From Candidatus Heimdallarchaeota archaeon (GTDB lineage: Archaea > Asgardarchaeota > Heimdallarchaeia > Heimdallarchaeales > Heimdallarchaeaceae): a stretch of DNA of 28,289 nt. Positions 288-21,434 of the stretch are shown piece by piece. The stretch covers positions 1-28,289 of the forward strand of contig JAEOSZ010000065.1 of the NCBI GenBank assembly GCA_016840095.1, in the 5' to 3' direction. Within the stretch, counting starts at the first letter, position 1, and the number at the start of each line of letters is the position of its first letter. A program made the translations under genes and the position numbers. Below the pieces are notes generated by a model. It ran no database searches. It saw only the letters and a list, made by a program, of their open reading frames with translations, and was not told where the DNA came from.

Positions 288-1466
288 CTAATGATTTGAT
301 TCTACCCTTATTATTTGCTCTAATCTTCTTATTAGTTGTTCCCATTCTTTTTCTTTTTTCAGCACTTTTAGATCATCTCGATTGTTTAAATTATCTAGCA
401 ACCTCGCAGGATTTTCTACACCTAAATCTATGGACTTGTTGAATATTTGAATAGATTTCCCAAGCTCTTTGTTTCTAGCAAGAATTACTGCATATAATAA
501 CCAATGACTAACTTGTGCTCTTTCATGTTTAACTGCTTTTTCTATATAGTTCAAACCTTCCTTGGGTTGATTGAGATAGAGAGCTTTGTACCAAGAATTC
601 TCTATAAGATTTTGAAATTCATCGAAACAACCAACAGCAGCTGTATAGTTCTGAATCTTCTTTAGTCCTGCTTTCTCAGCTGTTTTCCAAGAAGCATCAT
701 TATGTTCACTACAATGCCATCCAAGTTCTAACTTATTTTCAATGCAATATTCAATAGCAGCTGAAACAACCAAAGTCGCAAATCCTTTTCTTCTGTATGA
801 AGAAATGGTTCCAATACCCATTTCTATCTTATCTTCTGTTGCCCAGTCAGCCATACCATAACTAACAATTTCAAGATCATCTTTTACTAAACAAAATCCA
901 AAACCTCTAGCAAGAAAATCTTCTGTTGACTTCCAGCTTTCTTTAATCCAGTTGGTCACTTCTTTGAAATTCTCCAAAGAATCTCTCTTTAAGAAATTTG
1001 AATCAACTTTTTCCATAGAAAACCCTACATCTATTAGTTTTCTCCAATTGGGAATCTTGAGTTTTTCTAACTTATAATGACATCTTTTTAGTTCTATATA
1101 ATCTTTGAAACCAAAATCCTCTTCAATTTTCTTGTTCCATTTATCATCATCGTAATAAATAACCCATTCATTATTGTTGAACTCTGGATTTGTTTCTGCA
1201 CCTAGTTTCTCAGCTTCAGGAAATATGATTTCTTGAATAATTTTACTTATATGCTTGTTAAAATCCCTATTGTCTGGATCTCCAGCTAAATACGAACTCC
1301 AGCCATTATCTACCAGTAAACCTGACTGTGGTTGTTCCTTGTTGTCTACCCAAACTCTTCCTTCAGAATCTCCATTAATCACAGCTAAACTATTGAGATT
1401 AAAGAAAACTCCTTGAAACAAGTTCTTTACTCTTTGAAATTCTGATTTTTTTATCTCTTCGATCAC
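288..1466 (-). CDS. GNAT-family acetyltransferase (GNAT_acetyltran/PF12746-like) with C-terminal TPR-like helical extension
   Basis: Acetyl-CoA-binding motif YRRKGFA, plus GFGFCLV, IEMGIGT and WHCSEHNDASWKTAEKAG. The last ~110 aa are helical/TPR-like. GTG start with GGTGA SD at 1474-1478. Confidence 0.85.
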   Translation of the reverse strand: MIEEIKKSEFQRVKNLFQGVFFNLNSLAVINGDSEGRVWVDNKEQPQSGLLVDNGWSSYLAGDPDNRDFNKHISKIIQEIIFPEAEKLGAETNPEFNNNEWVIYYDDDKWNKKIEEDFGFKDYIELKRCHYKLEKLKIPNWRKLIDVGFSMEKVDSNFLKRDSLENFKEVTNWIKESWKSTEDFLARGFGFCLVKDDLEIVSYGMADWATEDKIEMGIGTISSYRRKGFATLVVSAAIEYCIENKLELGWHCSEHNDASWKTAEKAGLKKIQNYTAAVGCFDEFQNLIENSWYKALYLNQPKEGLNYIEKAVKHERAQVSHWLLYAVILARNKELGKSIQIFNKSIDLGVENPARLLDNLNNRDDLKVLKKEKEWEQLIRRLEQIIRVESNH

Positions 1467-1700
1467 TTTTTCATCACCGTTTTGAGGAGAGTGATAATGA
1501 TTCTGACGTAATTAAATGCTCAAAAGGTTTTGAAAACAGGCTTCTTTGTTACTGAGTTATACAGCTGTTAAAGGTGTCAATGTTCTCTCTTTGACAATTT
1601 GAGAATCCAATTTACTATCACTTTGAATCATATAATCACTGACACCTCCATTGTGTGTTTTACTAAAATGAGAATGTTATACTTATAATTCTTTTCTTTC
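1467..1700 (-). promoter_or_regulatory. Promoter plus ~190-nt structured leader (candidate translational attenuator) of the GNAT gene
   Basis: BRE/TATA at about 1700-1682. Complementary segments found by hand: 1649-1637 with 1582-1570; 1596-1591 with 1580-1575; 1640-1625 with 1503-1490; 1497-1490 with 1478-1471 (covers the GNAT SD); 1528-1519 with 1486-1476. Confidence 0.5.
1557..1631 (-). CDS. Putative 24-aa leader peptide (MIQSDSKLDSQIVKERTLTPLTAV) upstream of the GNAT gene
   Basis: ATG at 1631 and TAA at 1557-1559. Strong SD GGAGGTG (1649-1643) 11 nt upstream. TATA-like TTATAAG (1688-1682) with purine-rich BRE-like GAAAGAAAAG just upstream. Confidence 0.5.
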   Translation of the reverse strand: MIQSDSKLDSQIVKERTLTPLTAV

Positions 1701-1704
1701 GAAA

Positions 1705-2409
1705 TTATTCTCTGAAGAAGTCAGTTATTCTCTTTTGTCTATATTTCTTATAGACTCCACCTTCATTACTCCATGAAATTCCTTCAGCTTTTTCAGGAGT
1801 TAGTGGAATACCCTCAGTGTCTCTTTGAATTATTGATTTTACTTCAGAATACCCTTGGTAACTATACCCGAAATTTACTACAGCTTCATTAGCTGCTTCT
1901 CTTACTTCTTGTTTGTTGTAATGCAAAGCAGCTGTCAAAGGAATTATTGCTTCTGGATCTTTTAATTCTTTGAGAGCAGCTATAAGAGATTTTACAGCAG
2001 GTTCACCAATTTTTTCCAAAGCATAAACAGCATACTCTCTAACTATATCTTCCTCTTCTTCATCCTTGAGTGTAGCAATCAATGGAGCAATTGCTCTTTT
2101 GTTTCCAATCTTACCAAGTGTTTCAACTGCACAAACTCTTACTCTACTTTGAGAATTGCTCAATTCAGATATGAGCTGTGGGACAGCTTTTGAACCAATT
2201 TTTGTAAGAGCTTTTGATGCTACAAAACGAATGTCTTTATCTTCATCTCTAAGAGCAATAATCAGAGGATCTATAACAGGTTCACCAAATTTTATGAGTG
2301 CATTGACTGTTCTGGAAATTGTTCTTGTATTCTTATCTTTCAACTCTGAAATTAGAGCCAGAATATCTCCAGTATTCTCAAACTTTTCAATGTACTTATC
2401 TACACTCAT
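1705..2409 (-). CDS. HEAT-repeat (PBS-lyase type) protein with C-terminal PIP-box-like motif
   Basis: Repeated LIxALxDxDxxVRxxAxxALxKIG units; the C-terminus ends in QKRITDFFRE. Confidence 0.85.
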   Translation of the reverse strand: MSVDKYIEKFENTGDILALISELKDKNTRTISRTVNALIKFGEPVIDPLIIALRDEDKDIRFVASKALTKIGSKAVPQLISELSNSQSRVRVCAVETLGKIGNKRAIAPLIATLKDEEEEDIVREYAVYALEKIGEPAVKSLIAALKELKDPEAIIPLTAALHYNKQEVREAANEAVVNFGYSYQGYSEVKSIIQRDTEGIPLTPEKAEGISWSNEGGVYKKYRQKRITDFFRE

Positions 2410-20606: not shown

Positions 20607-21434
20607 CTATTTCCATATTCCTTGAAATTCATATCCATTTTTCTTAAGCTTAAACCCTACTGTTTCAGCTGTTTTCTTACTAGGAATATTAGAATCTCTA
20701 CAATGCCAACTAATTCTTTTCATTTCAACTTCTTTACAATGGTTTATTGTCTTTGATATAGTACTTCTTGCTAACCCTTTTTGACGATGTTTTTCATAAG
20801 TTATTACTCCTAGTTCGCATTCATCCATCTGTTTGCTAGCATAGCAGCTAAAGACCACACAAGCAATTTCTTCATCTTTGAAAGTTGCACTATAACCAAA
20901 ACCTCTGGAGAAGTAGTGTTCTTTCTTACTCCATGTTCCCTCTATCCATCCAGGAATAATATTGTAATTTATCAAATCAGATCTCTCAAATAATTCCCTA
21001 TCAATCTTTGCAAATGCATAATCCGATGGTAGTTCAACACTGAAACTATATTCATCTAAATCTTCAAGTACGTAGAAGCACTTTTTGATTTGCTCCAAGT
21101 TATCAAATATCTGATGTAATTTATCAAACAGATGATCTTCACTATGAACTAAAATATTCTTTCCTTGTTTTTCAGGATATCTAGGAAATAATTCAGTTTC
21201 AAGGAAATTTCTCAAAGATTCTATAGCTGAATCATCTATTTCCTTACCTGCCAGATGGAAATTTCTAATGTTTGGATGTAGGAGTAAAGCAACTTTAGGT
21301 AAGTCTATATTATCCACATAAATCTCTCCATCAATAAATCCTTCAAAAATAGATTGAATAGCCAGATAATCCTTTTCTAGATTAGTAAACAAAGGACGGA
21401 CTAATCTGAAATCATTTTGATTCAATCTGTACAT
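20607..21434 (-). CDS. GNAT-family acetyltransferase (PF12746-like), paralog of 288-1466
   Basis: GEIYVDN, RGFGY, ELGVIT, HRQKGLA and WHCRDSNIPSKKTAETVGF. Confidence 0.88.
   Translation of the reverse strand: MYRLNQNDFRLVRPLFTNLEKDYLAIQSIFEGFIDGEIYVDNIDLPKVALLLHPNIRNFHLAGKEIDDSAIESLRNFLETELFPRYPEKQGKNILVHSEDHLFDKLHQIFDNLEQIKKCFYVLEDLDEYSFSVELPSDYAFAKIDRELFERSDLINYNIIPGWIEGTWSKKEHYFSRGFGYSATFKDEEIACVVFSCYASKQMDECELGVITYEKHRQKGLARSTISKTINHCKEVEMKRISWHCRDSNIPSKKTAETVGFKLKKNGYEFQGIWK

Follow-up and report, generated by a model that had tools for sequence, protein, structure and literature searches.

A candidate translation-sensing leader family with a short upstream reading frame and competing RNA helices in Heimdallarchaeota

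Results

Genes and features at the locus

The window that we analyzed is a whole stretch of 28,289 nt from a Candidatus Heimdallarchaeota archaeon (GCA_016840095.1, contig JAEOSZ010000065.1), corresponding to contig C48 of a MAG of 3.44 Mb and 33% G+C. In this window, a HEAT-repeat gene and a GNAT gene are separated by a spacer of 238 nt (Table 1). The product of the GNAT gene matches the Pfam domain PF12746 (E 3.5e-32) and the PDB entry 7b3a (E 8.8e-23), and the N-termini of its orthologs align to the same GTG start. The HEAT-to-GNAT synteny is frequent across the genus, with a usual spacer of 4-80 nt that carries a TATA box only. A long HEAT-to-GNAT spacer was also observed in genome G013, which has a 20-nt block (GAGGTGTCAGTGATTAWATG) in common with the window.

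A sequence-only reading of this spacer had proposed that it contains a promoter, the SD sequence GGAGGTG, a 24-codon ORF (hereafter uORF) and a set of five helices (a to e), and all of these were found in place when checked by hand (Table 1). In the window, GGAGGTG is followed by 11 nt, the ATG and the 24 codons. Because the distance from TATA box to transcription start follows a usual spacing in archaea, and because the position of the TATA box is fixed relative to the other parts, a transcription start can be predicted shortly upstream of the SD. A scan for sigma-70 promoters and hairpin terminators was uninformative, the host being an archaeon. We named three strands of the leader: S1, which spans the SD (SD1) and start codon of the uORF; S2, which lies inside the uORF; and S3, which lies further downstream, before the GNAT gene. 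A 20-nt block of S1 (GAGGTGTCAGTGNTTNNATG) is identical in five genomes.

The sequence-only reading also took many genes of this genome to be leaderless, which is a fair description. Indeed, several GNAT paralogs carry a TTATAAGT-type TATA box 25-30 nt before the ATG, as in leaderless genes, and SD-like 4-mers, which peak at -11/-10, are found in a minority of the long ORFs of the window's genome. The usual SD form in the genus is GGTGAT located 4-7 nt before the start codon. The full GGAGGTG heptamer precedes just 4 of the 2284 long ORFs of the window's genome, and the gap between SD1 and the ATG is about 4 nt longer than the SD peak of that genome. Together, the rarity of the heptamer and the longer gap are in line with a site designed for competition and not simply for efficiency.

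Table 1. Positions of the genes, leader parts and helices in the window
Feature	Position	Strand	Remarks
HEAT-repeat gene	1705-2409		upstream of the spacer
Spacer	1704-1467	-	238 nt, between the HEAT-repeat gene and the GNAT gene
BRE-like stretch AAAGAAAAGAA	1699-1689	-	purine-rich, directly upstream of the TATA-like box
TATA-like box TTATAAGT	1688-1681	-	215-222 nt before the GNAT GTG (1466)
Predicted transcription start	1655..1658	-	inferred, 23-26 nt downstream of the TATA box
Strand S1	1625..1649	-	SD1 GGAGGTG (1649-1643), spacer, ATG (1631-1629) and first two codons; switching strand
uORF, 24 codons (MIQSDSKLDSQIVKERTLTPLTAV)	1557..1631	-	stop TAA 1559-1557
Strand S2 CATTGACACCTTT	1570..1582	-	3' arm of the uORF-enclosing hairpin; pairs with 1649-1637
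Two T4 runs	1536-1533 and 1525-1522	-	in the spacer downstream of the uORF stop
Strand S3 GAATCATTATCACTCTCCTC	1484..1503	-	distal complement of S1, 18 bp
Main-gene RBS	1464..1478	-	SD2 GGTGAT (1478-1473) and GTG start (1466-1464)
GNAT gene	288..1466	-	392 aa, GTG start; PF12746 domain and TPR-like C-terminal tail
Helix a	1497-1490 with 1478-1471		8 bp including 2 G-U
Helix b	1503-1490 with 1640-1625		extended by RNAduplex to 18 bp, 1648-1625 with 1503-1484
Helix c	1649-1637 with 1582-1570		13 bp including 3 G-U
Helix d	1596-1591 with 1580-1575
Helix e	1528-1519 with 1486-1476

A family of 28 related leaders

The exact 20-nt block was found in five genomes of the genus, always upstream of a long-form GNAT paralog. 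A covariance model built from these five GNAT-type copies detected a sixth copy, in G009, which presents two compensatory pair changes and lies upstream of a different gene, and rebuilt models then detected further copies upstream of a RIO-domain kinase (Pfam PF01163). The family comprises 28 copies, 5 of which precede long-form PF12746 GNAT genes (that of the window included) and 23 the RIO-domain kinase. The RIO-type copies occur once per genome, in 21 of the 25 genomes of the genus and in both genomes of the sister genus. The window's genome harbors exactly two copies, one on C48 (GNAT) and one on C28:15559-15667 (RIO), each upstream of its gene.

The element is therefore not specific to a GNAT or resistance gene, since most copies precede the kinase. 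The leader does not follow the GNAT orthologs either: the orthologs of the window's GNAT in three other species (G004, G016 and G020) lack the element, as does the ortholog of the G013 GNAT in G012. The protein tree places the five GNATs with the leader in three distinct parts of the long-form clade, each a subclade of its own.

In those other genera of the family, order and class to which the covariance models were applied, no copy was detected. A pattern search of the order allowing 1-2 mismatches returned as many matches as the reversed-pattern control, and its matches were all located in coding DNA without the 3' arm. When scanned for the exact pattern, genome contigs yielded the four known Heimdall contigs and 10 unrelated bacterial matches, and metagenome contigs yielded 28 matches, none of them genuine. 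Because the mismatched and outside-lineage matches represent noise without the 3' arm, the 28 copies constitute a specific family. The copies are related and come from two genera only, so the counts reported here overstate their independence; the genomes are MAGs of 76-95% completeness.

Known types of elements did not account for the family. A repeat or MITE-like mobile element was rejected, as the window sequence is single-copy in G000 (blastn and motif search). In a search of positions 1000-2200 of the window against Rfam 15, the best overlapping matches were far below the gathering score, and a RIO-type copy gave no match at E<=1. We also considered an archaeal C/D box sRNA, a class with a C box RUGAUGA, a D box CUGA, a short terminal stem and a length of 50-70 nt. 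The window does contain GUGAUUA and CUGA, and this candidate was rejected because the two boxes sit inside a continuous, perfect Watson-Crick stem and are not conserved (the RIO type has CAUAG/CUAUG); none of the snoRNA models passed on the window region.

The copies present a common layout composed of a TATA box, GGAGGTG, an ATG, the uORF, the S1:S2 hairpin, a U-rich spacer and a distal S3. The TATA-like box ends 30-32 nt before GAGGTG in 5/5 GNAT-type copies, and the RIO-type copies carry TTTATTAAT at the same promoter distance. The ATG is located 10-12 nt after GGAGGTG in 28/28 copies (11 nt in the five GNAT-type copies), and the homologous uORF frame is open over 19-28 codons in 28/28. The RIO-type uORF counts 26 codons in 19 of 23 copies, and the GNAT-type uORFs 24, 24, 19, 19 and 21 codons. 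In 21 of the 28 copies, the TGAC core is followed 20 nt later by the uORF stop, and TAA, TAG and TGA replace one another at this position. The covariance models did not include the TATA box, nor did they cover promoter distance, ORF length or stop position, yet these agree across copies. The fixed-distance promoter, the strong SD and the open uORF of all homologs support the earlier suggestion that the region is a real leader.

A conserved hairpin encloses the uORF

Helix c pairs S1 with S2. The whole 250-nt leader folds at -46.3 kcal/mol (z -0.84), and 33 of 200 shuffled sequences fold as well. In contrast, the local uORF hairpin formed by helix c reaches -22.4 kcal/mol (z -3.05), and only 2 of 200 shuffles are as good. 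The expectation that the leader would fold better than shuffled AT-rich sequence is thus borne out for the local hairpin and fails for the leader as a whole.

The S1:S2 stem was the sole consensus structure returned by RNAalifold on the RIO leaders. Across 24 aligned copies, in which GGAGGTG and the ATG are invariant, 91.6% of the cells of this stem are paired and three pairs are changed on both sides, bearing in mind that the RIO-type copies were found with a covariance model that rewards S1:S2 pairing. The covariation score was reached by 0 of 500 shuffles, and slid controls gave <=52%. RIO-type stems have AGGUGUCAUAG/CUAUGACACCU as their arms and GNAT-type stems AGGUGUCAGUG/CACUGACAC, and the two types differ by a compensatory swap from GUG/CAC (GNAT type) to UAG/CUA (RIO type). 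In G002, a U-A pair of the stem is replaced by C-G. The 3' arm of the GNAT type, YTGACAYY, pairs with GGUGUCAG and is read in different frames among the five copies. Where one side alone has changed, the outcome is nearly always a G-U wobble, which can pair in sense-strand RNA and nowhere else; the changes in S2 are mostly C-to-U or A-to-G wobbles. Such wobbles on the S2 strand favor a sense-strand RNA over a DNA operator or an antisense RNA. We also considered an inner helix that would join the spacer/AUG1 to the conserved mid-uORF sequence TTTGTTTGC, and rejected it by eye as inconsistent across subgroups.

A second partner for the same strand

Helix b pairs S1 with S3. In the window, the S1:S3 duplex predicted by RNAduplex has a dG of -19.6 (z -2.25; 2.2% of the shuffles equal this value). 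The best downstream partner of S1 was found at the same relative site in 26/26 leaders (21/21 RIO-type and 5/5 GNAT-type), at -44 to -12 before the next start codon. The dG of these duplexes ranges from -10 to -22 over the 26 leaders and from -12 to -22 in the 21 RIO-type leaders. In the RIO type, S3 has the form UUUU(U)GUCUUGACCCCUCU, is located 18-44 nt before the RIO start and is complementary to the entire S1, from GGAGG through AUG. Its lineage variants (UGACCCCUC, UGACACCUUU, UGACAUUUCC, UGAUACUUCC and UAUCCCCUC) preserve the pairing, and the sister genus (g10) presents a 20-bp duplex in which a C:G pair is shifted in both strands. When strands were swapped between leaders, RIO S1 paired with its own S3 at -9.9 vs -4.5 for GNAT S1 on RIO S3, and the window S1 paired with its own S3 at -12.7 vs -6.5 for RIO S1s; no such specificity was seen in 4/5 GNAT-type copies.

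RNAalifold did not return S1:S3 as a consensus, nor any other consensus fold when the hairpin was blocked. S1 hardly varies, so the support for S1:S3 consists mostly of conservation and one-sided changes. In the full-leader MFE structures of the 26 leaders, S1 pairs with S3 in 17 (the window among them) and with S2 in 9, and the two strands therefore behave as near-isoenergetic competitors for S1. S2 is made earlier in time, and S3 is usually the stronger partner. Since S1:S2 and S1:S3 share S1 and S2 lies inside the uORF, the two helices are mutually exclusive, from which we infer a switch between them. Of the competing helices that the sequence-only reading had described, b and c are thus conserved, and a, d and e have no conserved counterpart among the homologous leaders.

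U-rich tracts and access to the main RBS

The spacer that follows the uORF is rich in T. All 26 leaders present a run of at least four T within 40 nt of the uORF stop (background 0.48), and 14/26 present a run of at least five T after the stop (background 0.24). The post-uORF spacer contains 41-54% T in the relatives vs 29% in the window, whose T4 runs are weaker than those of the relatives. No terminator hairpin was found before the U-runs, and the region downstream of the uORF, folded by itself, shows no significant structure.

We estimated the effect of S1 on the RBS of the main gene. In the window, masking S1 drops the probability that the GNAT SD is unpaired from 0.32 to 0.09, and the AUCACU part of S3 then pairs with the GNAT SD through helix a. 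Across the 26 leaders, the accessibility of RBS2 is 0.50 when the leader is free, 0.39 with S1 masked and 0.58 with S2 masked; masking S1 lowers it in 16/26 leaders, a small effect. A conserved hairpin masking SD2 was not found in the RIO-type leaders. In the sister genus, S3 lies 70-270 nt from the kinase start, and the masking of SD2 therefore cannot be the general output of the leader.

Alternative explanations

An alternative to a cis-acting leader is that the module encodes a stand-alone small or dual-function RNA of ~110-200 nt, with its own promoter and an end at the U-runs or at S3, which would act in trans or simply be stable, the GNAT or RIO gene being expressed independently. The stretch from TATA box to S3 is indeed self-contained and well separated from the kinase in g10, the U-runs are present after the uORF stop in every leader, and S1:S3 would close the molecule into a single domain. 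Moreover, G007, G017 and G022 carry another small ORF, without Pfam match, between the module and the GNAT gene. However, the module is always in sense orientation and directly upstream of a gene, and no conserved second TATA box or internal promoter was seen between the uORF and the main gene. The sole promoter of the usual HEAT-to-GNAT spacers sits at the position of the module promoter, and in 20 of 21 leaders the RIO start follows the uORF stop at a nearly constant 85-95 nt. The loops, moreover, vary in sequence, which would be unexpected for a trans-acting seed. We consider a stand-alone RNA unlikely on this evidence, and the cis-acting leader remains our preferred reading.

It could also be that the 19-28 aa product of the uORF is a functional micro-protein and that the hairpin only tunes its translation. 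The conservation of an ORF with SD and ATG in every copy is in line with such a gene, and the RIO-type peptides have F/I-V-C and T-M-T-P-K motifs in common. However, third codon positions are not more variable than the others (entropies of 1.03, 1.02 and 0.94 at positions 1, 2 and 3). The T-M-T-P motif is encoded by the S2 arm, where the replacements (T to A or I, P to S) maintain the pairing and not the chemistry, and the uORF of G002 is frame-shifted while its length is still 26 codons. Finally, the GNAT-type peptides are unrelated to one another and to those of the RIO type, and S2 is read in different frames among them. A micro-protein therefore has little probability in our view; what the leader keeps is the length of the uORF and the position of its stop, leaving the peptide free.

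The sequence-only reading had suggested a drug-inducible attenuator of the erm/cat type, in which a ribosome arrested by a translation inhibitor while reading the leader peptide would free the GNAT RBS. GNAT enzymes include antibiotic-modifying enzymes, and PF12746 is said to include a zwittermicin-resistance protein; the architecture fits as well, with a uORF and the alternative helices a and b in the window. This explanation is nevertheless very improbable, because most copies precede a RIO-domain kinase, which is not a resistance-type gene, and because the peptide is free to vary. Indeed, the lack of peptide conservation and of codon periodicity makes a drug-dependent stalling on the nascent peptide unlikely. 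In addition, helix a is not conserved and orthologs of the window's GNAT lack the leader. Of the translational attenuator initially proposed, the leader, the uORF, helices b and c and the general architecture are retained, and the drug-induced stalling on a resistance gene is not.

Finally, a DNA-level feature (an inverted-repeat operator just downstream of the promoter) or a chance AT-rich complementarity, suggested by the arms forming an inverted repeat near the promoter, by a whole leader that folds no better than shuffles and by the modest individual folding and duplex z-scores of several copies, is hardly probable at all given that the arm changes are mainly G-U wobbles pairing only in the sense-strand RNA, that conservation extends to the ATG, the frame and the stop position, that the element is single-copy and not a repeat, and that the matches to mismatched patterns or outside the lineage lack the 3' arm.

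None of these explanations accommodates the combination of the fixed stop, the sense-strand wobbles, the two partners of S1 and the constant placement of the module directly before genes as well as a cis-acting, translation-sensing leader does. We give this leader about even odds, a modest share of the probability being left unassigned.

Discussion

A proposed mechanism

Our results suggest that the 238-nt spacer serves the GNAT mRNA as its 5' leader and is one member of a lineage-specific family whose leaders act in cis and sense translation, a reading that we hold with middling confidence. The mechanism that we propose builds on the parts of the leader and their conservation, on the covariation of S1:S2 and on the conserved position of S1:S3, and it supposes a predicted transcription start, a translated uORF and a presumed direction and output of the switch. 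Transcription would start ~8 nt before the strong SD GGAGGUG, and S1, which carries SD1 and AUG1, would have two exclusive partners: S2 in the 3' third of the uORF and S3 past the U-rich spacer. If a 30S subunit misses SD1 before S2 is transcribed, S1:S2 would close and the uORF would remain silent. Conversely, a ribosome translating the uORF would cover S2 up to its termination, 4-7 codons further on, after which S1 would pass to S3.

The output of this switch may take one or both of two forms: release of the main RBS from S3 and read-through of the U-runs. In the window copy, S3 overlaps the anti-SD of the GNAT RBS, so the hand-over of S1 would unmask GNAT translation; release of the RBS is plausible there. 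A second output, based on termination, is suggested by the conserved U-runs that closely follow the uORF stop. An uncoupled polymerase might terminate at these runs, either intrinsically or with the aid of FttA/aCPSF1, whereas a ribosome following closely would allow read-through. Termination by FttA/aCPSF1 works with U-tracts in archaea (PMC8716108), and it has been hypothesized that a coupled ribosome keeps FttA out (PMC11616081).

A broader and more speculative interpretation, which we consider rather unlikely, is that the leader is a sensor of ribosome availability. Its strong SD would be contested by mature 30S subunits and by two built-in anti-SD mimics, and the leader would thereby couple the RIO kinase, a small-subunit maturation factor, and, after duplication of the leader, GNATs to the capacity for co-transcriptional initiation. 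The family might then be the first archaeal family of leader-uORF attenuators. The link to the RIO kinase hints at a feedback on ribosome biogenesis.

Novelty and use of the family

In bacteria, the control of genes through leader uORFs and alternative RNA helices is textbook knowledge. To our knowledge, no family of this kind has been defined in archaea, and we know of no example in the Asgard group, whose members are the prokaryotes most closely related to eukaryotes. Our literature search found nothing specific on archaeal leader-peptide attenuation, on SD and leaderless usage in Heimdall or on uORFs of RIO kinases, and no description of this leader family was found in the literature or in Rfam. 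The leader is a candidate for a translation-sensing RNA switch, a type of control that is hardly documented in archaea. The family offers a concrete and predictive model of experiment size (28 members, three named strands, ~200 nt), and it could be used to test whether archaea exploit transcription-translation coupling and FttA-type termination for gene control. For genome annotation, an apparently empty 238-nt spacer would represent functional sequence, and the same leader has been re-used on unrelated genes.

Comparison with known systems

Like riboswitches and other cis-regulatory families of Rfam, the leader is a conserved, structured 5' region located before particular genes. It differs from them in matching no Rfam 15 model and in having variable loop sequences, which give no hint of a ligand pocket. 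An amino-acid attenuator of the trp/his type was rejected, as none of the uORF peptides contains a run of regulatory codons and the U-runs are not preceded by a hairpin.

The position of the uORF stop a few nucleotides before U-rich tracts recalls two bacterial attenuators that depend on coupling, the pyrBI leader and the tnaC/Rho system. A ribosome at or close to this stop would therefore abut the polymerase at the tracts, and in these systems such a geometry prevents termination or the access of a terminator factor. In contrast to them, the Heimdall leaders present no terminator hairpin before the U-run and no regulatory codon runs, and the archaeal factor would be FttA/aCPSF1, for which exclusion by ribosomes is a hypothesis (PMC8716108, PMC11616081).

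A parallel is also found in bacterial and phage mRNAs, in the MS2 coat-replicase arrangement and in the uORF-dependent unmasking of an RBS (cf. PMC8092293, PMC13285730), where an RBS is paired to a distant segment and a ribosome passing through that partner alters which RBS is accessible. In the present family, it is the uORF's own RBS that is paired away, with a choice of two partners.

Finally, the leader resembles the bacterial ermC and cat/cmlA attenuators (cf. PMC5499644) in possessing a uORF with its own RBS and helices that would depend on the position of the ribosome, and the window copy also contains one strand able to mask the SD of the main gene. It departs from them in its unconserved peptide, its prevalence before a RIO kinase, its unconserved SD2-masking helix and its Asgard host. 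The switching strand of the erm and cat attenuators is a segment inside or after the uORF, whereas here it would be the SD-AUG region of the uORF itself.

GNAT genes with and without the uORF leader

The order of the HEAT-repeat gene and the GNAT gene is kept across the genus (window 288-1466; loci L005, L006, L009, L011, L016, L106 and L107), and the HEAT proteins of these loci share 70-91% identity. The GNAT of the window has only ~30% identity to the GNATs found at the same position in other species, and it clusters with non-syntenic GNATs of the genomes G004, G016 and G020. The leader of the window seems to have been retained while the GNAT gene behind it was exchanged.

The window genome carries three further PF12746-like GNAT paralogues, all of them short-form (262-283 aa; see table), and tandem GNAT pairs are present in the genomes G007 and G017. 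Several of the short-form paralogues, in this genome and in its relatives, have a TATA box 25-30 nt upstream of their ATG and appear leaderless.

Two GNAT orthologues lacking the uORF leader (L002 and L004) share a conserved inverted repeat, GGTAACAG...CTGTTAC, whose loop of ~62 nt encloses a TATA-like box; ~45 nt farther upstream there is a TTTTTAAGT box. This repeat may represent a different regulatory element on such orthologues.

In three genomes (G007, G017 and G022), an additional ORF of 36-45 aa (for example, MTQELKLIKIQRCIEDKFVEEFKEYKTIYRKRNSFKIIIGCRKCL) follows the uORF leader and precedes the GNAT gene. Each of these ORFs has an SD of its own, and those of G007 and G017 overlap the GNAT start. 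None of the three matched a Pfam family.

Coordinates of GNAT paralogues, additional ORFs and the inverted repeat
Feature	Location	Strand
Short-form PF12746-like GNAT paralogue	window 20637-21425	(-)
Short-form PF12746-like GNAT paralogue	G000:C11:83903-84706	
Short-form PF12746-like GNAT paralogue	G000:C16:25998-26507	
Additional 36-45 aa ORFs (G007, G017, G022)	L030:1651-1788, L032:962-1099, L036:1653-1763	
Inverted repeat	~200-125 nt upstream of GNAT orthologues of G020 and G016 (L002, L004)	
70-aa CxxC...CxxC ORF	L123:1235-1447 and L155:1649-1861 (-)	

Variation among RIO-type leaders

The RIO-type leader is immediately preceded, on the same strand, by a conserved 70-aa ORF with a zinc-ribbon-like CxxC...CxxC pattern. 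In the sister genus, S3 is followed by UUGGAAUGUGAUUAAAA, a remnant of the RBS of the main genus, in both G041 and G042. The gap from S3 to the RIO kinase start is ~70 nt in G041; in G042 (L163, G042:C204, ~1730-1990), ~200 extra nt that include an open frame are found in this interval.

Individual copies also vary within the leader itself. The hairpin of the G002 copy (L152, G002:C316) presents a U-A pair changed to C-G, plus one wobble. Its uORF undergoes a frame shift before the 3' arm and ends in ...LLWHLKSLV rather than the usual ...TMTPK..., with a length that is still 26 codons. In the RIO-type copy of the window genome (G000:C28, L155, ~15650-15640), a 1-nt deletion converts CATAGA to CATGA, generating a 3-codon mini-ORF (AUG AUA AAA UGA) whose stop overlaps the AUG of the uORF.
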